Virus record (IMG/VR): IMGVR_UViG_2778261419_000004
Location: 1 to 37,812 of that record
DNA: 37,812 bases
DNA from: a virus
Lineage: Duplodnaviria > Heunggongvirae > Uroviricota > Caudoviricetes
Direction: 5' to 3' (one strand)
The stretch's first letter is position 1; every line of letters begins with the position of its first letter. A model generated the notes under the pieces. That model searched no databases, was not told the DNA's origin, and worked only from the letters and a program-made list of their open reading frames with translations. The position numbers were made by a program, and so were the translations under genes. This document shows positions 5,645-35,427 of the stretch, one piece after another.

Positions 5645-6013
5645 TTAGTCAGCGAAGGTTAAGACGAGAATTAACTTAATGATGTCTGCTACAACAGACA
5701 CGGCCATAGATAAACCAAAGACAATCCAAGCCATAGAGATGTCTTCACTACCATCGTATAGAGTTCCGTAATCACTGGTGTAAGGCGTAAATGTCGCGCC
5801 TTGATACAATAGGTATAAGCTTGATCCATAGAGGATAAATGCAGATATCCCTTGTATTGCTATGATCACCAGAATCATGAAACGAGCTGATCTATGCGCC
5901 CAAGCCTGGCTTATTTTTTCTGATAGAGATTTCGCAATAAAAGCATGCGCTAAGCCGTAAATTGTCGAGATTGCCAACATCCCAAAAAAGCTTGCTATAG
6001 CGGTTCCAACCAT
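5645..6013 (-). CDS. Small multi-pass membrane protein coupled to cI (candidate exclusion protein)
   Basis: Track ORF 5645..6034 begins with TTG one nt after the cI stop; a more likely ATG at 6013 follows AAGGGG. Three or four hydrophobic helices; same transcript as cI. Confidence 0.65.
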   Translation of the reverse strand: MVGTAIASFFGMLAISTIYGLAHAFIAKSLSEKISQAWAHRSARFMILVIIAIQGISAFILYGSSLYLLYQGATFTPYTSDYGTLYDGSEDISMAWIVFGLSMAVSVVADIIKLILVLTFAD

Positions 6014-6030
6014 AAGCGCCCCTTGCGTGA

Positions 6031-6747
6031 TCAAACCAGCCTTAGTTTTGTCTCAATTGCAACGCCTATAATCTTGCAGTTTCCATTGATTGGCACGAGA
6101 GGCCATGCAGGGTTAAGTCCCTTGAGGTATTTATTTCCGCCGTCGATTATCAGCTTCTTGAATGTTGCTTCGTTAGAGTCAGAAAGTTTTGCTATAACCA
6201 AGCTGCCGTTGATCGCCTCCCTTCCGGTATCGAAAAGAACGAATGTTCCCTCTGGAATGCTTAACCCAACCGGTGCCGTCATTGAATCACCTTCCACTTT
6301 AAGCCAAAACGCATTACCTTGAATATGCGCGTCAGACTCAAGCCAAACATCTACGTCTTTAATGGTGTATGGTTCGCATGCTTCACACCACGAGCCAGCC
6401 TGGATACTGCTTAACACCGGATACCTCTTTCCTGCTCTGTATTCCCCTGCATACCTTACGTTGGCATCGCTCTTAAGGCTTTCTGCCTGTTCTGCAACCT
6501 TGGCAGCAATTGACTGGCTAAAATCAGCAATTGAGACTTGCAACAATCGTGCAAAACCAGATGCAACCTCAACGTTTAGCGCGTTTCTGCCATTAAGATA
6601 ATGCCCTACCGCTCCTTGGGTGATACCCAGTTCATCAGCGATTGAGTATTGGGTTATTCCCAATTCTTTCTTTTTTGACTCATACAAAGCCTTAAGCCGC
6701 TTAGCGTCTTCGAGCTGTTCTGTCGTCAGTGATTTTTTATTTTCCAT
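6031..6747 (-). CDS. cI: CI repressor (HTH plus LexA-like S24 autopeptidase domain)
   Basis: 238 aa; LTTEQLEDAKRLKALYESKKKELGITQ resembles lambda cI; C-terminal FWLKVEGDSMTAP...ATFKKL carries the Ser/Lys autocleavage motifs; leaderless start next to OR3. Confidence 0.9.
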   Translation of the reverse strand: MENKKSLTTEQLEDAKRLKALYESKKKELGITQYSIADELGITQGAVGHYLNGRNALNVEVASGFARLLQVSIADFSQSIAAKVAEQAESLKSDANVRYAGEYRAGKRYPVLSSIQAGSWCEACEPYTIKDVDVWLESDAHIQGNAFWLKVEGDSMTAPVGLSIPEGTFVLFDTGREAINGSLVIAKLSDSNEATFKKLIIDGGNKYLKGLNPAWPLVPINGNCKIIGVAIETKLRLV

Positions 6748-14188: not shown

Positions 14189-14571
14189 GTTTGCACAACA
14201 GGTAAGAGCATTGAACCCGCAGACCTCGCGGAATTGGTGAAAGGTGCCGCGCAGTACTCTTATCGTTGTGGTGAATACGCAGGCTGATGCGTTAATCAGG
14301 TGAACGAGACACCCGCCGGTCCGTGATATGGCACACCGTGCCGGTCATATCTGCCGCGGTTAGGTTTACGAGGATTTCGTAAAGCTGGTCTAGGGTGAAG
14401 CCGTGAAAGCGGAGGAAGTAAAACGAGGCGTCGGTACACGCCTATCGTCATTAAGTCGGAGTTCAGCACCGACCGCCACAACCCAACCTGAGCCGTAGCC
14501 ACTGGCTATCCTGAATTCATCAGTGATAGTTATGCTGCGGCCTTCTACACATGACCTTCGTGAAAGCGGGC

Positions 14572-14606
14572 GGCATGAGGTTGCGCTAACAACCTCATGC
14601 CGTTTT
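14572..14606 (+). terminator. Strong hairpin in the Q-S leader (candidate tR')
   Basis: Perfect 11-bp stem GGCATGAGGTT / AACCTCATGCC with an 8-nt loop, followed by GTTTTG. Confidence 0.5.
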
Positions 14607-14726
14607 GCCCGTGCATATCGGTCACGAACAAATCTGATTACTAAACACAGTAGCCTGGATTTGTTCTATCAGTAATCGACCTTATTCCTAATTAAATAGA
14701 GCAAATCCCCTTATTGGGGGTAAGAC

Positions 14727-18743: not shown

Positions 18744-20220
18744 TAACTTGAGCGACGAAGAGCAAATCGAATTGCTCGAGCTACTCGAAGAAGAAGAGAA
18801 CTACCGTAACACACACCTGCTATATGAATTTACGCCATACAGCAAACAGCGTGAGTTCATCGACGCCGGACATGACTATCCAGAGCGATGTTTTATGGCT
18901 GGTAACCAGCTTGGTAAGTCATTTACTGGTGCTGCTGAAGTCGCGTTTCACCTTACCGGGCGTTATCCGGGCACAAAAGGCTATCCTGTTGATGGTAAAT
19001 ATGGCGGTGAGTGGAAAGGTAAGCGTTTCTATGAGCCTGTTGTCTTCTGGATTGGCGGCGAGACAAACGAGACTGTAACCAAAACGACTCAACGCATCCT
19101 GTGCGGTCGTATCGAAGAGAATGATGAGCCTGGCTACGGTTCCATACCGAAAGAAGACATCATTAGCTGGAAGAAGTCTCCTTTCTTTCCGAACCTTGTT
19201 GATCACCTTCTGGTTAAGCATCACACGGCTGATGGCGTTGAAGATGGCATTTCAATCTGCTACTTCAAACCATACTCGCAAGGCCGTGCTCGCTGGCAGG
19301 GTGACACAATCCACGGCGTGTGGTTTGACGAAGAGCCACCATACAGCATTTATGGCGAAGGTCTTACCCGTACCAACAAATACGGGCAATTCTCAATTCT
19401 GACGTTTACCCCTCTGATGGGGATGTCTGACGTTGTTACCAAGTTCCTGAAGAATCCCAGCAAGTCGCAGAAAGTGGTCAACATGACCATCTACGACGCT
19501 GAGCACTACACCGACGAGCAGAAAGAGCAAATCATCGCATCCTATCCCGAGCATGAGAGAGAGGCGCGTGCTCGCGGTATTCCTACGATGGGTAGTGGTC
19601 GAATCTTCCAGATACCGGAAGAGACGATTAAGTGTCAGCCGTTCGAGTGTCCTGATCACTTCTACGTAATTGGCGGGATGGATTTCGGATGGGATCACCC
19701 ACAGGCGCAGGTTCAGCTTTGGTGGGATAAGGACGCAGACACAATCTACGTTTCACGCGTGTGGAAGGCGAAAGAAAAAACAGCTGTTCAGGCATGGGGA
19801 GCTGTTAAATCATGGGCGCATAAAGTGCCAACCGCATGGCCTCATGACGGAAACCAGCATGAGAAGGGCGGCGGTGAGCAGCTCAAAGGGCAGTACGCAG
19901 ACGCTGGATTTATGATGTTGCAGGAGCATGCGACATGGCCTGATGGAGGTAATGCTGTTGAGCCTGGAATCACTGAATTGCGAGACATGATGCTCGACGG
20001 TCGCTTCAAAGTGTTCAACACCTGTGAGCCATTCTTTGAGGAGTTCCGCCTCTATCACCGCGATGAAAACGGGAAAATCGTCAAGCTTAACGACGACGTG
20101 CTATCCGCCGTTCGCTATGCATACATGATGCGCCGCTTCGCAAAAATGATGCGCGACATCAAAAAACCCAAAGAGAAAAAGATACCAGCCCCAATCAGGC
20201 CCATCGCACGGAGAACTTAA
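18721..20220 (+). CDS. terL: Terminase large subunit (P22 gp2-like)
   Basis: 499 aa, same as P22 gp2; GTG start [25 protein letters not shown] overlaps the terS end. Confidence 0.9.
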
Positions 20221-22386
20221 ATGGCCGACGAAAACAGACTCAATTCCATTCTGTGTAAGTTTGACGCGGACTGGATGGCGAGCGATGAAGCCAGAACCGA
20301 GGCGACAAATGACCTGTATTTTAGCCGAGTGTCGCAATGGGATGACTGGCTATCAAACTACACCACCCTGCAATATCGCGGACAATTCGATGTTGTTCGC
20401 CCGGTGGTCAGGAAACTGGTCGCAGAGATGCGGCGGAACCCTATCGACGTTCTATTCAGACCAAAAGACGGCGCTAATCCTGATGCTGCCGATGTGTTGA
20501 TGGGAATGTATCGTACCGATATGCGCCATAACACGGCAAAAATTGCCGTTAACGTTGGCGTTCGTGAGCAGATAGAGTCCGGCGTTGGTGCATGGCGTCT
20601 GGTCACGCAGTACGAAGACAACGATCCAACAAGCAACAATCAGGTAATCCGACGCCTTCCAATCCATGAAGCCTGCTCACACGTCATATGGGACGCCAAT
20701 AGCAAGCAGATGGATAAGAGCGACGCTAAGCACTGCACGGTGATTAACGCCTTGTCGCGCAATGGCTGGAAAGAGTTCGCAGAGGATTACGGTATTGATC
20801 CTGACACCCTGCCATCTTTCCAGAATCCGAACGATACATGGCTGTTTCCGTGGGTATCGAATGATGTCGTCTACGTCGCTGAGTATTACGAGGTCGAAGA
20901 GAAGAAGGAGAAAGTCTTCATCTACCGCGACCCGCTGACAGGTGAGCCGGTCAGCTATTACCAGCAGGATATCAAAGACGTCATCGACGACCTGGCTAAT
21001 CGTGGATTCATTAAGGTAGCAGAGCGTAAGGTGAAGCGTCGTCGTGTGTATAAGTCGATCATCACCTGCACGCAGATACTGAAAGACCGAGAAAAGATAG
21101 CCGGAGAGCATATCCCAATCGTTCCAGTGTATGGAGAATGGTCATTCGCTGGTGACAAGGAGTGCTACGAGGGAGTGGTAAGGCTGACGAAAGACGGTCA
21201 ACGCCTTCGTAACATGATCATGTCGTTCAACGCCGATATTGTTGCTCGTTCACCGAAGAAGAAACCTACCTTCTTCCCTGAGCAAATCGAAGGCTACGAA
21301 TACATGTACGGTGGAAATGATGACTATCCGTACTATCTGCAGAACAGGACCGATGAAAACGGTAACGACCTTCCGATTGGTCCAATCTCCTACATGGAAA
21401 ACCCTGAAGTGCCGCAAGCCAACGCTTACATGCTTGAGGCTGCCACCAACGCAGTGAAAGAGGTGGCTAGTCTTGGTGTGGATGCGCAGGCAGCAAACTC
21501 TCAGGTCGCTTTTGATACCGTCAATCAACTGAACATGCGGGCAGACCTTGAGACATACGTGTTTCAGGATAACCTGGCTACCGCAATGCGACGTGATGGC
21601 GAGATTTATGCCTCAATGGTCAACGATATTTATGACGTTCCTCGTCATGTAACGCTGACACTTGAAGATGGTAGCGAGAAAGACGTTCAACTATACGCGC
21701 AAGTTGTAGATTACCAGTCCGGTAATGTGGTCACACTCAACGACATTCGCGGTCGCTATGAGTGCTATACAGACGTTGGACCATCCTTCCAGAGTATGAA
21801 GGAACAGAACCGCGCAGAGATTCAGGAGTTGCTCACCAAGGTTCCGCAAGGTACTCCAGAGTTCCAGATGCTGATGCTGCAATACTTCACGCTGCTTGAC
21901 GGTAAAGGCGTCGAGATGATGCGAGAGTACGCGAACAAGCAACTGGTGATGATGGGGCTGAAGAAACCAGAAACACCTGAAGAGATGGAGATGGTACAGC
22001 AGGCTCAACAGCAGCCGCAGCAGCCATCAGCAGAGCAAATTCAGGCGCAGGGTATCCTTCTGCAAGGTCAGGCTGAATTGCTCAAGGCAGAGAACCAACA
22101 GGCGCAGATTCAGGTTGAAGCCGCCAAGGTTGAAGCCCAAAACCAACTCAACGCCGCGAAGATTGCGGAAATCTTCAACAATATGGACCTCGACAAGCAG
22201 GCAGAACTGCGTGAGTACCTCAAGCTCGTAGGTCAATTCCAGCAACAGCGCAGCAAAGATGCTCGCGCTAACGCTGAGCTGCTTCTTAAAGATGCAGACC
22301 AGACTCATTCACAACGCATGGATTTCGCGAATCTTATGCGTCAAGTTCAAATCCCCTCCGGCGGAGTAGCCGAGACACCTCAATAA
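20221..22386 (+). CDS. Portal protein (P22 gp1-like)
   Basis: 721 aa; long stretches match P22 portal as recalled ([46 protein letters not shown]). Confidence 0.9.
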
Positions 22387-22399
22387 GAGAGAGTTAATC

Positions 22400-23311
22400 A
22401 TGGACCAAACCACCGACATTCAGGCTTCTGAAGAATTAACCATGTCCGGCAATCATGCAGCGGCATCTGCTGATGGCTTAGTTGTCGATAATGCCAACGA
22501 TAACACAGGTCAGGAAGAAGGCTTCGAGATTGTCCTGAAAGACGATGAGAAACCAAAACAAGACCCGGCAACTAATGCTGAATTTGCCCGTCGCCGCATC
22601 GAACGCAAACGCCAGCGTGAGCTTGAGCAGCAGATGGAAGCGGTTAAGCGTGGAGAATTGCCGGAGCACCTGCGGGTGAACCCTGAGTTACCGAAACAAC
22701 CAGACCCTAACGATTATCTTTCCGAAGATGCACTGGCTAAGTACGACTATGACCAGAGCCGCGCACTGGCTGCCTTCCAGCAGGCAAACAGTGAATGGCA
22801 GATCAAGGCTATGGACGCACGAAGCCAGGCTGTCGCCGAGCAGGGTCGCAAAACTCAGGAGTTCACCCAGCAATCAGCGCAATACGTCGAGGCAGCCCGT
22901 AAGCACTACGACGCAGCGGAAAAGCTCAATATCCCTGACTATCAGGAGAAAGAGGATGCATTCATGCAACTGGTGCCGCCAGCAGTCGGTGCCGACATCA
23001 TGCGCCTCTTCCCGGAGAAATCCGCTGCTCTCATGTATCACCTTGGTGCTAATCCTGAGAAAACACGCCAGTTGCTGGCGATGGACGGGCAATCCGCGCT
23101 GATTGAACTCACTCGACTGTCAGAACGTTTAACTCTCAAGCCTCGAGCCAAGCCTGTTTCAGAAGCCCCGTTACCTGATGAACCCATTCAGGGGCACGCT
23201 GTTGCTGCAAATATCTCTGCGATTGAAAAGCAGATGGAAGCGGCAGCAAACAAAGGGGATGTAGAGACGTACCGCAAGCTCAAGGCTCAACTCAATAAAG
23301 GAATTCGATAA
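22400..23311 (+). CDS. Scaffolding protein (P22 gp8-like)
   Basis: 303 aa as in P22 gp8; acidic helical composition; C-terminal [27 protein letters not shown]. Confidence 0.85.
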
Positions 23312-24606
23312 TGGCATTAAATGAAGGTCAACTGGTCACGTATGCTCTGGATGAAATCATCGAAACCGTCCAGAACCTGACGCCAATGGCGTCCAAAGTG
23401 ACAAAATACACCCCTCCGGCAGAATCCATGCAACGTTCAAGCAACACCGTGTGGATGCCTGTTGAGCAGGAAGCGCCAACTCAGACTGGCTGGGATTTAA
23501 CGGGCAACGCAACCGGGATTCTGGAACTCTCCGTGAAATGCAACATGGGCGATCCGGATAACGATTTCTTCGAGCTTCGTGCAGATGACCTGCGTGATGA
23601 GCGTTCTTACCGTCGCCGCATCCAGGCATCCGCCAAAAAACTGGCGAATAACATTGAGTCAGCGATTGCCAAACAGGCAACTGAAATGGGCTCGCTTGTT
23701 GTTCACGATACCCGCGCAATTGGTCCATCTACTGGCCTGTCTGGCTGGGATTTTGTGTCTGATGCAGAGCGCCTGATGTTCTCCCGTGAGCTAAACCGCG
23801 ATATGGGCATCAGTTACTTCCTGAACCCTGACGATTACCGCAAAGCAGGCCGAAACCTGGTAGATGGCGACATCTTCGGGCGAGTTCCTGAAGAAGCGTA
23901 TCGCAACGGTACTATTCAGCGTCAGATTGCTGGCTTTGATGAAATTCTTCGCTCACCGAAACTTCCGGCAGTTACCAAGTCAACCGCTACTGGTGTAACT
24001 GTTTCTGGTGCGCAGAAGTTTAAGCCGCAGGCATACACTCTTGATACCGATGGTAACAAAGAGAACGTCGACAACCGTGTTGCAACGGTGACCGTATCCT
24101 CCACCACCGGATTTAAGCGCGGCGACAAAATCAGCTTCACTGGTGTGAAATTCCTGTCTCAGATGGCGAAGAACGTGCTGACTGATGATGCTACTTTCTC
24201 AATCACCCGTGTGATCGATGGTACTCACATCGAAATCACGCCGAAGCCGATTGCGCTTGATGACGCGTCACTGACAAAAGAAGAGAAGGCTTACGCTAAC
24301 GTAAACACCTCTCTTGCTGATACCACTCCGGTAAACGTTCTGAACGTGGCAACAACCACCGCTAATGTGTTCTGGGCTGATGACTCAATCCGTCTGCTGT
24401 CTCAGCCGATCCCGGTAACCCATGAACTGTTTGCTGGCATGAAAACGTCTTCCTTCAGCATTCCTGGTATTGGTGTTAACGGCATCTTCGCAACGCAGGG
24501 TGATATCAACACTCTGTCTGGTAAGTGCCGTATTGCTGTGTGGTATTCAGCATGTGCTGTACGACCAGAGGCAATTGGTGTTGGTCTGTCTAACCAGACC
24601 GCGTGA
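23311..24606 (+). CDS. Major coat protein (P22 gp5-like)
   Basis: 431 aa; [20 protein letters not shown]... and C-terminal [30 protein letters not shown] match the P22 coat as recalled. Confidence 0.9.
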
Positions 24607-29311: not shown

Positions 29312-30724
29312 TTGGCTACATGGCAACAGGCTGGTAATTCAGGCGCGCTTCTTGCCGGGTTAGGCGGCATGAACTCCAACGCTCCAAGAGCAAGTGATGC
29401 AGACGCCACGCTTGCATACATTCGACAGAATAACGAGATGGAGCGTTCAGGACGTAATAACGTTGGCTTGCAGGCTTTGCAGGGCATTTCATCTGTCATG
29501 GATATGTATAAGCAGATGGATCAGCAGAAGCGACAGCAAGAGTTTCAGCAGGCTTATGCTGATGCATATACATCTGGTGACCGCGATGCAATGCGAAAAC
29601 TGGCATCACAGTATCCTGAGCAGTTTGACGCTGTAAGAAACGGCATGAAATTTGTCGATGAAGACCAGCGTTCCACTGTCGGCACACTGGCAGCAAGTGC
29701 CAGACTGGCAGCTTCATCTCCAGAAGCCATGATGTCATGGTTGCAGAACAACTCATCTGAGCTTACTCGTGCCGGAGTAGACCCTCTGGATGTGGCGAAA
29801 ATGTATCAGCAAAATCCACAAGGTTTCACAGAGTTTGTTGATCACCTTGGAATGGCTGCTCTTGGTCCGATTGATTACTTCAATGTTCAGGACAAGATGG
29901 CTGGTCGTGAAATTGACCGAGGCAGGCTGGCAGAGACAATCCGCAGCAATCAGGCTGGTGAAGCACTTCAGGCGAGAGGGCAAAACCTTTCCTATCAGTC
30001 AGCAATGACTGGGCACAATATCGCAGCACAACGCTTGGCTCTGGATCAGCAAGAGTTCGGGTTTAAGATGCAGCAAGCGCAGGAAAAGGCTCAGCAGTTG
30101 ATTAGTGAAGCACCTAAGCTGTCAGTAAACATGGAAAAAGGCATCGAGACGGCTGTAAACAATGCCACAGCATCATCAAACTCAGCCAATTCTATGAGTG
30201 CGCTTGCTCAACAGTTCAGAGCAGAAAAACCAACGACAGGTTTGTTCGGTAACGCACAGAACATGTTCGCAAAACTTACCGGAAGCGATACAACATTGCG
30301 TGATTTGCGCATTCGCCAAAATGCCCTTGTTAACAGTCAGGTCCTTAAATTCCTACCTCCCGGCCCAGCAACGGATAAAGACGTTGAGATCGTTCGGCAG
30401 GGTGCGCCAACTGACATGGATAACCCTGAGACGGTCGCAAGATGGCTTGATGCAATGGCAAACCTTGAGCGACGAAACGCGCAGTTTAATGAGTTTAAAG
30501 CTGAGTGGATGAGCGCGAATGGCAACCCTGGACAATCGCGTAATGGCGGTCAGATATTGGGGTTGGATGTTAAAAAAGGTGAATCATTGGGGAGTGCCGT
30601 TAAGCGGTATATGTCAATGAATACTGACGCAGCGCCAGCACAAGATTCGACACCTTCAGGAGAACCACGGAATCAGGTTGGATCATATACCTCAAAATCA
30701 GGCATTCAATTTACGGTGGAATGA
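29312..30724 (+). CDS. Ejection protein (P22 gp20-like)
   Basis: 470 aa (P22 gp20 about 471); TTG start after GGAGGTG; assigned by position and size. Confidence 0.7.
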
Positions 30725-32562
30725 TGAAAGTAACTGCAAACGGTAAGACATTTACCTTTCCTGATGGTACGAGCACCGAAGATATTGGCACCGCCATTGA
30801 CGAGTATTTTGCTGGTCAGGCTGTTCAGCAACAAACAGTTAATCAGGCCAATAATGCACCAACACGGGAAGAACCATCATTGATGCAACAAGCTGGCGAT
30901 TGGCTCACTGGTGGTCAAAGTGCAGGGCAAATTGCAGAACAGGCTGGTCGTGGTCTGGTAAACATACCATTTGACGTATTGCAGGGCGGCGCAAGTCTGA
31001 TTAATGCAATCAGCCAGGGGCTTGGTGGACCCAAGGTTATGGATGATGTTTATCGTCCAGTAGACAGACCGACAGACCCCTACGCGCAAGCCGGTGAAAC
31101 AATTGGTGGGTATTTAGTTCCAGGAGTTGGAACGGCAGGAAGCATGGCTATTGGATCACTGGCAGAGGCCGCAAATCAGAAAGGCGATTTCGCACAAAAT
31201 GCAGCTAAAAATGCCGGAGTTAACCTTGCCGCTCAGGGTGTTCTTTCCGCAGCAGCAAAGGGAATAGGGCGTGGAATAACGGCTATAAAAGGTGATATTG
31301 CGCCAGAAGTGGCGAAGAAAATTGCCACATCAGAATCGATGGGCGTGACACCAATGACATCTGATGTTATCCCGCCGAAAAATGCTTTCACTCGCGGCCT
31401 TACTCAGGATGCCGAGGGGGCTTTGCTCGGGACGGGCTCAAAGCGAGCAGAGCAATATGCAACGCGTAGTAAGCTGGTAAGCAATTATTTTGACCGTTTT
31501 GGTGAGTATAACCCTGATGATGTGGTGAAATCTCTGACCACCACGTTAAGGGGGCGGAAGGATGCTGCTGGCGCTGTTATCAATGACGTCACCAATAAAA
31601 TGGGTAATGCCGCAGTTGATACTACAAATACCATGAATGCTCTGAATACAGCGATCGCAAGACAGGAACGGCTTGGGACTTCAGCCAATCAAAGCCTGCT
31701 TACATCCTTGCGTAACCTGCGTGAAGAATTAGCAAACCCTGCAACTGATTTGGATGTTACGTTTGATCTCTTGCGTCAGCACAGAACAGCATTTAGATCT
31801 AATGTTCAGGGAGATGCTATGGTCTTCCCCAACCAGGCAAAAGCAGCTACCAATATGGTAGAGAATGCAATGTCAAAAGACCTTCGTAACGCAGTTGCTA
31901 AAAACCTCGGTGCATCAGACGCAGCAAAATACCTTAAAGCAAATTCCGATTATGCAAATGTTTATAATAAGGTGCTTAATAAAAACATTGCCAACAAGCT
32001 CAACAAGGCAAGCAGTGAAGCCAGTCCTGAACTTATAAATACCGTTGTATTAAGCAGAAAACCATCTGACGTGAAACGAATCTGGAGCGCACTGGATGAT
32101 AAAGGGAAAGATGCTATGCGTGCAGCTTACGTCAGCAAAATAGCGGAAAAGGCCGGTGACTCTCCAGCCAAGTTCATCACTGAAGTTAATAAGCTGAAAT
32201 CTCAGTCAGGCGGTGAAATTTACAACACTATTTTTTCTGGAAAGCACATGAAAGAACTTGATGCTCTTCATGAAGTTCTACAGCAAACAGCAAGGTCAGA
32301 CACCGCAAATGTAGTAACTCAGACGGGGCAATCACAAGCCAACAGGATAAGGACGATTGGAGCAACTGCGACTCTTGGTGTATCAATGGGGCTTGAGGCT
32401 GGCTTTGGTGCAATGATGCGTTTGTATGAGTCCAAAGCAGCAAGGAATGCTCTCTTACGTCTGGCAAACACTAAGGCTGGAACGCCAGCCTATGAAAGAG
32501 CGTTGAGTAACGCCGCAAATGCCATCAGGCCGCTGCTTGCTACTGAGGCAACACAGCAGTAA
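30721..32562 (+). CDS. Ejection protein (P22 gp16-like)
   Basis: 613 aa (P22 gp16 about 609); last gene of the rightward late operon before the immI region. Confidence 0.75.
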
Positions 32563-32586: not shown

Positions 32587-32976
32587 TTAACATTTTCTTT
32601 TTACTTTTCCAACAAAAGCTTTGGTTGAATCCATATTCCCATAACCAGAAATGGTTTTCGACATTAAAACTGTTCCATTAGGATGTATTACCCATGAGTC
32701 GATAACTCGTTGAGTTTCGCCATTCGCGCCGATTCCAATGATGGAGTTTTTAGACAATGCTTTGTAAGCCATGCCGCCCGCATCCGTCCCAGAATATGTG
32801 ATACTGGCATCTTCACCGTTTGTCTTAATGATGAATGTTCCACTAAAACCATCTTCTTCCGGTTGAAAATTATTTCGTTCTGAATAGCTTATTCCGTGCA
32901 TATCCCCAACGACCCAGCACTCTGCTGAGACAGAAAACGAGAAGACAAAGAAAGCCATTGCTATAATCAATTTCAT
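32587..32976 (-). CDS. Secreted protein with signal peptide (unknown function)
   Basis: 129 aa; N-terminal MKLIIAMAFFVFSFSVSA then E; AT-rich; second gene downstream of mnt on the same strand. Confidence 0.65.
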   Translation of the reverse strand: MKLIIAMAFFVFSFSVSAECWVVGDMHGISYSERNNFQPEEDGFSGTFIIKTNGEDASITYSGTDAGGMAYKALSKNSIIGIGANGETQRVIDSWVIHPNGTVLMSKTISGYGNMDSTKAFVGKVKRKC

Positions 32977-32992
32977 TTTTAAGCCCTTATTG

Positions 32993-33328
32993 TTATTGAT
33001 TCTTTTTGCACGGAAATGTTTTTCCTACTGCTAGGGCGGTTAGTATAACTGCATTCTCATTTCTTGATTCTGGGTTTTTGTTTAGATATTTCTCAACGAT
33101 ATCGGTGTATTGATACATGTCAACGCCATCAGGAGGACATAGAGAACCAATTAGTATCAATGAGTCAGTTACTCCGCGCAAATATCCAGTAATGTAAAGC
33201 GATGAAAAATCATCACCCTTTTTACCTTGTTGAATGTTGTAAAGAAGGTCATTACCCGTTTGAAGCTCGCGCAGCTCAGCACTGGAAGAAGAGACAACTG
33301 CTAACAGGAACAGTGATAGAAATCTCAT
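32993..33328 (-). CDS. Secreted protein with signal peptide (unknown function), coupled to mnt
   Basis: 111 aa; N-terminal MRFLSLFLLAVVSSSSA; start overlaps the mnt stop (ATGA); AT-rich. Confidence 0.65.
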   Translation of the reverse strand: MRFLSLFLLAVVSSSSAELRELQTGNDLLYNIQQGKKGDDFSSLYITGYLRGVTDSLILIGSLCPPDGVDMYQYTDIVEKYLNKNPESRNENAVILTALAVGKTFPCKKNQ

Positions 33329-33579
33329 TTCAAATCCTTTTCATAAATCTTTTTAAGTGTCTCAAACACTATAGACTTGAACTGCTCAGCCTGCTGATCA
33401 GCCAAGCGTTCAGCTTCGTCGCGATATCCTGTAATCGGTGATGGTTTTGATAGTGCATCCTGAACGATTTGTAATAACTCAGAGTTCATTGACCTTCCGT
33501 TAGCCTCGGCTCTTAATTTCAATTTTTCTCTTACTTCCAAAGGCATACGGAAGTTAAAGTGCGGATCATCTCTAGCCAT
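33325..33579 (-). CDS. mnt: Mnt repressor (ribbon-helix-helix)
   Basis: 84 aa MARDDPHFNFRMPLEVREKLKLRAEANGRSMNSELLQIVQDALSKPSP... near-identical to P22 Mnt as recalled. Confidence 0.85.
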   Translation of the reverse strand: MARDDPHFNFRMPLEVREKLKLRAEANGRSMNSELLQIVQDALSKPSPITGYRDEAERLADQQAEQFKSIVFETLKKIYEKDLK

Positions 33580-33601: not shown

Positions 33602-33630
33602 TTGACATGATAGAAGCACTCTACTATATT
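33602..33630 (+). promoter_or_regulatory. Pant promoter with Arc operator
   Basis: -35 TTGACA (33602-33607), 17-nt spacer, -10 TATATT; Arc operator-like ATGATAGAAGCACTCTACTAT at 33607-33627. Confidence 0.65.
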
Positions 33631-33636
33631 CTCAAT

Positions 33637-33653
33637 AGGTCCACCGTGGACCT
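33637..33653. promoter_or_regulatory. Mnt operator
   Basis: 17-bp palindrome AGGTCCAC-C-GTGGACCT between mnt and arc. Confidence 0.7.
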
Positions 33654-33669: not shown

Positions 33670-33831
33670 ATGAAAGGAATGAGCAAAATGCCGCAGTTCA
33701 ATTTGCGGTGGCCTAAAGAAGTATTGGATTTGGTACGCAAGGTGGCGGAAGAGAATGGTCGGTCTGTTAACTCTGAGATTTATCAGAGAGTAATGGAAAG
33801 CTTTAAGAAGGAAGGGCGCATTGGCGCGTAA
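33670..33831 (+). CDS. arc: Arc repressor (ribbon-helix-helix)
   Basis: 53 aa [53 protein letters not shown] matches P22 Arc as recalled; GAGGTG upstream. Track ORF starts earlier at 33607. Confidence 0.85.
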
Positions 33832-33899: not shown

Positions 33900-34802
33900 A
33901 TGAATAGTATAGCAATTTTAGAAGCAGTGAACACCTCTTACGTACCATTCAACGGTCAGCAAATTATCACCGCCATGGCTGCCGGAGTTGCATACGTTGC
34001 GATGAAGCCAATCGTTGAAAACCTTGGAATGAGTTGGGGTACTCAGCAACAAAAACTTATGAAACAACTAGATAAGTTCAACTGTATTCATATGAATATG
34101 GTTGCCGCTGATGGGAAGCTTCGTAAGCTACTCTGCCTTCCTTTGAAGAAGTTAAATGGATGGCTGTTCAGCATCAACCCTGAGAAAGTTCGAGCTGACA
34201 TCCGCGATAAACTGATTCAGTACCAGGAAGAATGCTTTACTGTACTGCATGACTACTGGACAAAGGGAAAGGCAGAAAATGCACGTAAGAAAACATCTGT
34301 TGATGACAGGACTCCGCTTCGTGATGCTGTAAATATGCTAGTCAGCAAAAAGCATCTAATGTACCCAGAAGCTTATGCAATGATTCATCAGCGTTTCAAT
34401 GTGGAAAGTATTGAAGAGCTTGATGCATCTCAGATACCGCAAGCCGTAGAGTACATCCACAGGGTAGTGCTTGAAGGTGAGTTCATCGGCAAACAAGAGA
34501 AGAAAACCAACGAGCTTTCTGCAAAAGAAGCAAACAGCCTTGTATGGCTATGGGATTATGCCAACCGCTCACAGGCATTATTCCGCGAACTGTATCCGGC
34601 GCTGAAACAAATTCAATCGAACTATTCCGGCAGATGTCATGACTGCGGTTATGAGTTCTCCCGTATTATCGATATAGCGAGAGACGTTTTAATCAATCAC
34701 TCACGAGATGTTGATATCAATGAGCCAGACGGACCAACGAATCTTTCCGCATGGATGAGACTTAAGAATAAAGAATTACCTCCTTCAGTACATAACTACT
34801 GA
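33900..34802 (+). CDS. ant: Antirepressor Ant
   Basis: 300 aa from the ATG at 33900 ([26 protein letters not shown]...), matching P22 Ant size and recalled N-terminus; track extension from 33834 is a TTG start. Confidence 0.85.
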
Positions 34803-34912: not shown

Positions 34913-35401
34913 TTATCTAAAACAAGCAAACTCGCCATGATATTTTTCCCTGAATGCAATAGACATTAATTCGGCCAGCTCAATATCATCGGTATACCCA
35001 AGGCAAATAGACTTACCTTTTAGTTTGAACATAACTTTATATGTGTTTTTCCCTTTAAGAAGATGAACTCCTTTTATACCTGTATTGGATGATGAAACGC
35101 TGTTGGTTTTATTCTGACCTCTGGTTACTTCTCTTAGGTTTGAAATTCTATTGTCATTTTTAACCCCGTTAATATGGTCAATTAACCCTTTAGGCCAGCA
35201 TCCTTTCATATAAAACCAAGCAAGTCGGTGGCAAAGATACGATTTTCCATTAATCCGTATTGATAAGTAGTCGGCCTGTGAGTTCGTCTTAAATCCAGCA
35301 ACCTTTCCGATACTGGAGCTACCAGAAGCTATCTTCCAAGTGAAGACGCCTGTTTCTGGGTTGTAGTTGAGTGAAGAGGTTAATTCTTTATGAGTAATCA
35401 T
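34913..35401 (-). CDS. HNH homing endonuclease with AP2 domain (paralog of 10535..11122)
   Basis: 162 aa from the second ATG; HNH LIDHINGVKNDNRISNLREVTRGQN; AP2-like GIKGVHLLKGKNTYKVMFKLKGKSICLGYTDD; opposite strand to flanking genes; AT-rich. Confidence 0.75.
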   Translation of the reverse strand: MITHKELTSSLNYNPETGVFTWKIASGSSSIGKVAGFKTNSQADYLSIRINGKSYLCHRLAWFYMKGCWPKGLIDHINGVKNDNRISNLREVTRGQNKTNSVSSSNTGIKGVHLLKGKNTYKVMFKLKGKSICLGYTDDIELAELMSIAFREKYHGEFACFR

Positions 35402-35427
35402 ATTCATTCCTTAAATAGAGATTCACT

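Follow-up and report, generated by a model that had tools for sequence, protein, structure and literature searches.

Immunity proteins of the Rap1a/Tai4a family act in the periplasm against the Ssp1/Tae4 peptidoglycan endopeptidases delivered by type VI secretion systems (T6SSs) (PMC3852654, PMC3533786). Members described under the name 'Tai4a' are periplasmic five-helix dimers that sterically block the Ssp1 endopeptidase, and folding of Rap1a depends on a Cys78–Cys122 disulfide that ties the α2–α3 loop to the C terminus (PMC3852654). Orphan immunity genes are already known from mobile elements, where their presumed role is protection from non-self T6SS effectors (PMC12247911, PMC10539506, PMC7400221), and T6SS toxin–immunity clusters are known from Ralstonia prophages (PMC11481896). 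A different kind of protection is represented by hex ('heterologous exclusion') of phage 434, which shares the PRM transcript of the 434 repressor and is required for the exclusion of P22 by Salmonella imm434 lysogens (PMC3564112). Here we describe an interval within a 37,812-nucleotide viral DNA (IMG/VR record IMGVR_UViG_2778261419_000004, positions 1 to 37,812; this whole stretch is referred to as the window) in which the repressor gene mnt is followed by two genes, ORF-A and ORF-B, that belong, with near certainty, to the Rap1a/Tai4a family (as a full-length member) and the Hex family, respectively. The greater part of a P22-like prophage lies in the window: early genes come first, then those for replication, lysis, morphogenesis and ejection proteins, and lastly immI and the tailspike. 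The interval is the immI region of an Escherichia coli prophage of this (Lederbergvirus) type. We propose, at a probability of roughly 0.6, that the two genes provide an envelope defence expressed in lysogens, with ORF-A directed against T6SS peptidoglycan endopeptidases (amidases) and ORF-B against other phages.

The assignment of ORF-A, which RefSeq had already named automatically as a 'Rap1a/Tai family immunity protein', is carried by a match to the Pfam model of Rap1a immunity proteins (PF18602) that spans the entire profile (positions 1–90 of 90; E = 9.8e-15; 55.3 bits against a gathering threshold (GA) of 27.7) and by a match to phrog_3870 (4.6e-44). The structure prediction that the original prediction had called for gave an all-helical AlphaFold2 (AF2) model with a mean predicted local distance difference test (pLDDT) score of 74.7. 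A Foldseek search of approximately 350,000 Protein Data Bank (PDB) chains with this model placed Rap1a (3zfi_B) and Agrobacterium tumefaciens Tai4 (At-Tai4, 6ijf) at the top, both as weak matches below statistical significance (template modelling (TM) scores 0.49–0.58, E about 0.5–1). Two cysteines, Cys64 after a predicted helix at residues 40–58 and Cys107 near the C terminus, are invariant in all homologues and stand 43 residues apart, compared with 44 in Rap1a; by spacing and position they appear to be the counterpart of the Rap1a Cys78–Cys122 disulfide. A PDB profile search with six close homologues of ORF-A brought no gain over the single sequence, and scans of ORF-A and ORF-B against NCBIfam and PADLOC returned no matches.

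ORF-A stands without a partner toxin gene. Its neighbours are mnt, ORF-B and gene 16 only, and no effector gene adjoins it in 26 E. coli genomes, 15 viral contigs or the Serratia prophages that we inspected, which marks it as an orphan member of its family rather than half of a canonical effector–immunity pair. Among 5,426 complete E. coli genomes, it is present in 26 (0.5%), with mnt as its neighbour in every case and identities of 98.8% or more, and sensitive blastn detected no further copies in these genomes. The search for homologues in other prophages was informative: those with 65–81% identity, in E. coli and Serratia prophages of the P22-like type, all come immediately after mnt. The next gene is a diverged ORF-B in some and, in S. 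fonticola, a second Rap1a paralogue, and in others nothing follows. All 15 IMG/VR contigs that carry ORF-A share the order mnt, ORF-A, ORF-B and convergent gene 16, and hold two ORF-A/ORF-B allele pairs that co-vary. In the S. fonticola prophage (locus L002, 8001–8715), tandem Rap1a paralogues of 112 and 119 amino acids, 30% identical, follow mnt as an immunity-type mini-array. Lone Rap1a/Tai genes with no adjoining effector also occur on conjugative plasmids, including Pseudomonas syringae pPma4326A (L034, 3869–4231), where the gene adjoins HicAB and an IS3 element, and a Rhizobium etli plasmid (L035, 4938–5315). DSL-LC04, an unrelated 61-kb aquatic phage, has a Tai4-like gene with 30% identity to ORF-A in a group of small early genes (L015, 2932–3258).

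ORF-B is linked to Hex by several lines of comparison. Both proteins match phrog_2651 (2.3e-60 for ORF-B and 1.4e-58 for Hex of 434), profile alignment with hhalign gives 99.9% probability (E = 2.1e-31), and pairwise blastp aligns them at full length over 133 columns (3e-14, 29% identity). In a translated search of phage genomes, ORF-B showed 29% full-length identity to the gene immediately after cI in 434, HK446, HK633, Sf101 and Sf6 (gp38), which in 434 is hex itself. The family comprises approximately 140 clusters at 50% identity, nearly all of 125–135 residues, whose common traits are a signal peptide, an invariant cysteine two residues past the cleavage site, an invariant tryptophan and a nearly invariant C-terminal cysteine; the conserved cysteine pair in ORF-B is C20/C129. 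The AF2 model is a closed β-barrel with a pLDDT of 85. Models in Pfam, NCBIfam and PADLOC gave no match for ORF-B, and a PDB sequence search returned chance matches alone (for example, BMPR2 and CdiA, E > 0.3). Searching genomes with a narrow ORF-B alignment yielded one locus, in Symbiopectobacterium. The neighbours of distant relatives included no recognisable effector; one was DUF4238-like just below threshold and the others belonged to no family. A distant relative in Arsukibacterium indicum (L009, 8001–10536) lies among small genes of no recognised function, 1.5 kb from a Tse2-like ADP-ribosyltransferase toxin and Tsi2-like immunity pair.

Both ORFs are real genes rather than chance reading frames, as judged from the Pfam and PHROG matches and from orthologue comparisons in which non-synonymous divergence (pN) falls far below synonymous divergence (pS), with dN/dS ratios of 0.14–0.29 where measurable. 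Both are thus under purifying selection, and ORF-A has diverged less than mnt next to it (pN of 0.19 and 0.43, respectively, against the L005 prophage). The N termini quoted in the original prediction are exact and have the tripartite structure of signal peptides, with a basic residue 2, a hydrophobic core (maximum Kyte–Doolittle value over 9 residues of 3.0–3.1) and a small-x-small site, cleavage being predicted between SSA and E in ORF-A and between VSA and E in ORF-B. In alignments of homologues, the first approximately 18 residues are variable and the mature parts are conserved. Cleavable Sec signal peptides, and hence periplasmic export, are predicted for both.

The arrangement of the locus (Table 1) suggests how the two genes would be expressed. 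The ORFs of 111 and 129 amino acids that had been placed downstream of mnt on the same strand were confirmed (33328–32993 and 32976–32587), and the start of ORF-A does overlap the mnt stop by the 4 nucleotides ATGA, with a Shine–Dalgarno sequence (AAGGA) 7 nucleotides 5′ of the ATG. After a gap of 16 nucleotides from the ORF-A stop, ORF-B begins, with AAGGG 8 nucleotides 5′ of its ATG. Because the Pant/Pmnt control region is identical to that of P22 at 157 of 160 positions, the annotated P22 Pmnt, Pant, O-arc and O-mnt map here at an offset of +30852; Pmnt is an experimentally defined promoter in P22 (P22 annotation). A scan of the locus found no terminator-like site between mnt, ORF-A and ORF-B, the first past Pmnt on the minus strand being a hairpin beyond the ORF-B stop. 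The translational coupling, a promoter nearly identical to that of P22 and the lack of a terminator before the end of ORF-B together make co-expression with mnt in lysogens, as originally proposed, likely for ORF-A and plausible for ORF-B. The latter may also have a promoter of its own: it shares the strand of mnt here, yet in some other prophages plus-strand genes part it from mnt, so that an independent promoter is needed there, and the promoter-like site within ORF-A could be a candidate.

Table 1 Coordinates of the mnt–ORF-A–ORF-B interval and flanking immI features (positions in the window)
Feature	Coordinates	Strand	Description
mnt	33325..33579	-	84 aa; maintenance-of-lysogeny repressor of the Arc/MetJ type; heads the proposed operon
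ORF-A	32993..33328	-	111 aa; Rap1a/Tai4a family
ORF-A signal peptide	33278..33328	-	Residues 1-17, MRFLSLFLLAVVSSSSA, followed by E; predicted from sequence features
ORF-B	32587..32976	-	129 aa; Hex family (phage 434 Hex / Sf6 gp38); predicted secreted beta-barrel
ORF-B signal peptide	32923..32976	-	Residues 1-18, MKLIIAMAFFVFSFSVSA, followed by ECW; predicted from sequence features
Pmnt promoter	33607..33635	-	TTGAGA-17-TATCAT; promoter-like site coinciding with mapped P22 Pmnt
Arc operator	33607-33627		Mapped from P22; overlapped by Pmnt
Mnt operator	33631-33653		Mapped from P22
Promoter-like site within ORF-A	33096..33123	-	TTGACA-16-TATCGT, ~120 nt 5′ of ORF-B; consensus scan only
Terminator-like hairpin	32474..32491	-	~100 nt 3′ of ORF-B stop, within the 3′ end of convergent gene 16
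Gene 16-type DNA-ejection protein	30721..32562	+	613 aa; convergent neighbour bounding the cargo slot; Pfam Phage_P22_gp16 in syntenic loci
arc	33670-33831	+	immI; from Pant, divergent to mnt
ant	33900-34802	+	immI; from Pant, divergent to mnt

The mnt product matches the Pfam models Arc (4e-28) and Repressor_Mnt (1.1e-11), and mnt/arc DNA is 87% identical to that of P22. The description of ORF-A and ORF-B as markedly AT-rich is right in direction and overstated in degree: their GC contents of 39.0% and 39.7% lie below the 46.6% of the window, but the dip is moderate and common to the whole immI segment, with mnt at 40.4%.

The two genes occupy the slot that holds orf59a and sieA in P22, where the order is gene 16, sieA with its own promoter, orf59a and mnt; the placement of sieA between gene 16 and mnt in the original prediction was thus correct, with orf59a there too. 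As relatives of SieA or orf59a, ORF-A and ORF-B were rejected for lack of sequence similarity, blastp against SieA giving no match better than E = 25. The broader proposal that the sieA slot carries an exclusion or lysogenic-conversion cargo holds up, now with family names in place of the unknown function originally given to both proteins: ORF-A falls in a family that RefSeq had recognised, and ORF-B is homologous to 434 Hex, an exclusion protein defined by genetics. What did not survive is their treatment as one pair. The full module occurs in 25 of the 5,426 E. coli genomes and ORF-B in 147; ORF-B is found without ORF-A in approximately 120 of these genomes and in phages Emek and ST-35, and homologues of ORF-A occur without ORF-B in Serratia prophages. 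The lone ORF-B adjoins gene 16 in Emek, ST-35 and many E. coli prophages; the stretch from there to mnt is filled by a Panacea-domain gene, by a ClpP-like gene coupled to mnt, or by other ORFs. The position just after mnt accepts very different cargo. Homology with Emek, ST-35 and the approximately 120 E. coli prophages ends at about position 32927, inside the signal-peptide codons of ORF-B, indicating a mosaic junction in this coding region, so that ORF-B N termini differ among prophages. From these variable contents and the independent occurrence of the two genes, we conclude that the gene 16–mnt interval is a cargo hotspot in which ORF-A and ORF-B are separable cassettes.

Two E. coli prophages illustrate this slot further. 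In SCU-123 (L018, 4759–6473), a ClpP-like protease gene coupled to the mnt stop is followed by a Panacea-domain gene and then a Hex-like gene. LR-21-1 (L016) carries at argW a decayed prophage whose morphogenesis genes have been replaced by IS1, and which keeps a gene 16 fragment, ORF-B, ORF-A, mnt, arc, ant and the tailspike (19588–24383) and also has a 434-type hex next to cI (14217–14621); its ORF-B is annotated in RefSeq from an internal methionine as 104 amino acids, by which the signal peptide is lost.

In the mechanism that we propose, Pmnt would drive a three-gene lysogen operon of mnt, ORF-A and ORF-B, with Mnt holding the antirepressor off. ORF-A, its translation coupled to that of mnt, would leave the cytoplasm by the Sec route and adopt in the periplasm a disulfide-stabilised helical fold of the Rap1a/Tai4a type, where it could bind and sterically block Ssp1/Tae4-type peptidoglycan DL-endopeptidases injected by T6SS-armed competitors. 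Given that no cognate effector gene lies nearby, it would most likely act as an orphan immunity protein, and by blocking injected endopeptidases the prophage would protect its host and itself from contact-dependent killing. ORF-B would be an independent cassette encoding a secreted 12-kDa eight-stranded β-barrel stapled by an N-to-C-terminal disulfide, which by analogy with Hex most likely keeps out heterologous phages, acting at the envelope or during DNA entry. Gene structure, family membership, synteny, separability and purifying selection are observed, and export is predicted for both proteins; we infer the co-transcription and both protective functions.

Several points weigh against this proposal. 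S. marcescens Rap1a is undetected from ORF-A by phmmer and At-Tai4 is matched directly only marginally (E about 0.1), identity to the structurally solved members is low (about 22–25%), and the fold matches are weak (Foldseek E about 0.5, TM 0.5–0.58) with a moderately confident model (pLDDT 74.7). Immunity in the Rap1a family is highly effector-specific (PMC3852654), and neither a cognate Ssp1/Tae4-like effector for ORF-A nor an effector-linked close relative was found in the homologue searches made. For ORF-B, the identity to Hex is just 29%, the fold resembles generic eight-stranded barrels only and gives no functional clue, and the single biochemical paper on Hex proposes a cytoplasmic role (PMC3564112).

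The alternative that fares best, and that we nevertheless hold to be unlikely, would have ORF-B counter an antibacterial toxin or hydrolase that acts in the periplasm, as another orphan immunity protein or inhibitor, in which case the whole cargo would be an array against bacterial weapons. The second Rap1a paralogue at the position of ORF-B in the S. fonticola prophage points this way, as do the Arsukibacterium relative near a Tse2/Tsi2 pair, the many chromosomal family members outside phages and the co-variation of ORF-A and ORF-B alleles in E. coli prophages. However, the sole family member with a phenotype, Hex of 434, is a phage-exclusion determinant (PMC3564112), and we found no member directly beside a recognisable effector. 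Activity as an inhibitor is further disfavoured by the PliC/MliC models, which miss ORF-B, and by PhiA, which ranks below many generic barrels; on these grounds, a periplasmic lysozyme inhibitor of the MliC/PliC type was rejected. We also rejected ORF-A and ORF-B as an effector–immunity pair, as ORF-B has a Sec signal peptide, a barrel fold and no catalytic motif and the two genes occur independently.

ORF-A could conversely be a superinfection-exclusion factor, a Rap1a-fold inhibitor repurposed against the virion peptidoglycan endopeptidase of incoming phages, much as Sp of T4 inhibits the tail lysozyme. Its place in the sieA slot, beside a Hex-family exclusion gene and DNA-ejection genes, would suit such a role, as would the confinement of close homologues to phages and prophages and the Tai4-like gene in the early region of DSL-LC04. 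Yet all characterised family members neutralise T6SS Tae4/Ssp1 effectors (PMC3852654, PMC3533786), no NlpC/P60-type virion hydrolase is known in P22-like phages able to superinfect this host, and phage exclusion is a less natural role for the lone members on conjugative plasmids. We therefore judge this reading improbable. Similarly improbable is its extension to both genes, in which the Rap1a-fold protein and the Hex-like barrel would be a periplasmic superinfection-exclusion pair that blocks the wall-cutting and channel-forming steps of phage DNA delivery. If it were true, T6SS immunity folds and phage exclusion factors would be interchangeable inhibitors of injected peptidoglycan hydrolases, and 434 Hex a secreted entry blocker, not a cytoplasmic repressor stabiliser.

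The role published for Hex, that of a cytoplasmic lysogeny stabiliser blocking RecA-stimulated autocleavage of the repressor, is one that we consider very improbable for ORF-B. In its favour, a fragment of Hex is reported to inhibit the cleavage that RecA stimulates in the repressors of 434 and P22 in vitro, and to reduce spontaneous induction (PMC3564112). That work used a 158-amino acid frame starting 24 codons upstream, inside cI, and obtained a stable active fragment, 'sHex', that begins at Glu43 of this frame (PMC3564112). When the 134-amino acid frame is read instead (phage 434, L013, 2501–2905), Hex starts with a classical signal peptide (MIRIAALLSILLTTSANS, followed by ECW), and Glu43 becomes Glu19, exactly the first residue past the predicted signal-peptidase site between TSANS and ECW. 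The paper nowhere mentions a signal peptide or the periplasm and did not consider export (PMC3564112). Hex thus appears to be secreted, at odds with the sole published mechanism, and the cytoplasmic anti-RecA mechanism deserves re-testing because the start of sHex coincides with the predicted cleavage site. ORF-B, Hex and the whole family combine such a signal peptide with the invariant terminal cysteine pair, and members are found outside phages at sites that lack a LexA-type repressor in the vicinity, both of which argue against a cytoplasmic role. Finally, the hypervariable, mosaic slot and the rarity of ORF-A (0.5% of complete E. coli genomes) might suggest that both ORFs are neutral hitch-hiking cargo without current function, to which we give almost no credence given the purifying selection on both genes, the intact frames, Shine–Dalgarno sites and conserved cysteines across E. 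coli and Serratia, the closer conservation of ORF-A than of mnt, and the retention of the module in the decayed LR-21-1 prophage.

Two further genes in the window merit mention. At 5645–6034 on the minus strand, an ORF of 129 amino acids with a TTG start overlaps the stop of a LexA-type cI repressor gene (6031–6747); its product, which matches no Pfam model, is strongly hydrophobic and probably spans the membrane several times. Because its position is equivalent to that of lambda rex and 434 hex in the cI operon, we consider it a candidate for a membrane-protein gene acting in exclusion or abortive infection. Between ant and the tailspike, a 164-amino acid HNH_3 endonuclease (34913–35407, minus strand; Pfam 4.3e-15) lies in a low-GC patch (36–39%) and looks like a homing-endonuclease insertion.

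If ORF-A works as proposed, a temperate phage would give its E. coli host resistance to contact-dependent T6SS killing, a form of lysogenic conversion serving interbacterial warfare, with the resistance gene on the very transcript that silences the prophage. 'Acquired interbacterial defence' (AID) would thereby extend from genomic islands and integrative and conjugative elements (ICEs) to tailed phages of the Enterobacteriaceae. In the literature on Rap1a/Tai4 genes in phages and prophages, we came across no account of a lone Rap1a/Tai4a gene tied to Mnt of P22-like phages, nor, in the literature searched, of such a gene paired with a Hex homologue. ORF-A represents a compact and directly testable case, with one gene of 111 codons and a known toxin family. 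More broadly, the gene 16–mnt hotspot holds SieA, Hex-like, Rap1a, Panacea-domain and ClpP-like genes across prophages, and the module prompts a renewed look at 434 Hex, a classical exclusion gene with an apparently secreted product.

Among described systems, Rap1a (SMA2260) of S. marcescens Db10 and Tai4 of A. tumefaciens resemble ORF-A most closely, sharing the full-length PF18602 domain, a predicted signal peptide, a mature part of approximately 95 residues, an all-helical make-up (in ORF-A, that of the model) and a cysteine pair placed to link the α2–α3 loop to the C terminus, and being its top-ranked, if weak, fold matches; ORF-A differs in lying outside a T6SS cluster, with no adjoining Ssp1/Tae4 effector, and in being coupled to a phage repressor instead. 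In Ralstonia prophages, by contrast, the clusters are complete, with vgrG, toxin and immunity genes, and do not consist of lone immunity genes (PMC11481896). The orphan immunity genes of the Bacteroidales AID systems, of Serratia and Vibrio and of the S. Typhi immunity islet share with ORF-A a toxin-less immunity gene on a mobile element, but those form arrays in an island or ICE, whereas ORF-A is a single gene in the predicted mnt transcript of a temperate tailed phage. P22 SieA shares the slot and strand of ORF-A and ORF-B and, by analogy, a role in protecting the lysogen; it is a polytopic inner-membrane protein with three long hydrophobic segments and its own promoter, whereas ORF-A and ORF-B are predicted to be soluble and secreted, the signal peptide being their sole hydrophobic segment. 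Finally, 434 Hex and Sf6 gp38 agree with ORF-B in length, signal peptide, the mature 'ECW.V' N terminus and the 'FVG.V..C' C terminus, and Hex and ORF-B alike lie downstream of a lysogeny repressor on its strand; Hex follows a LexA-type cI in immC, whereas ORF-B lies in immI after mnt and ORF-A, beside gene 16.

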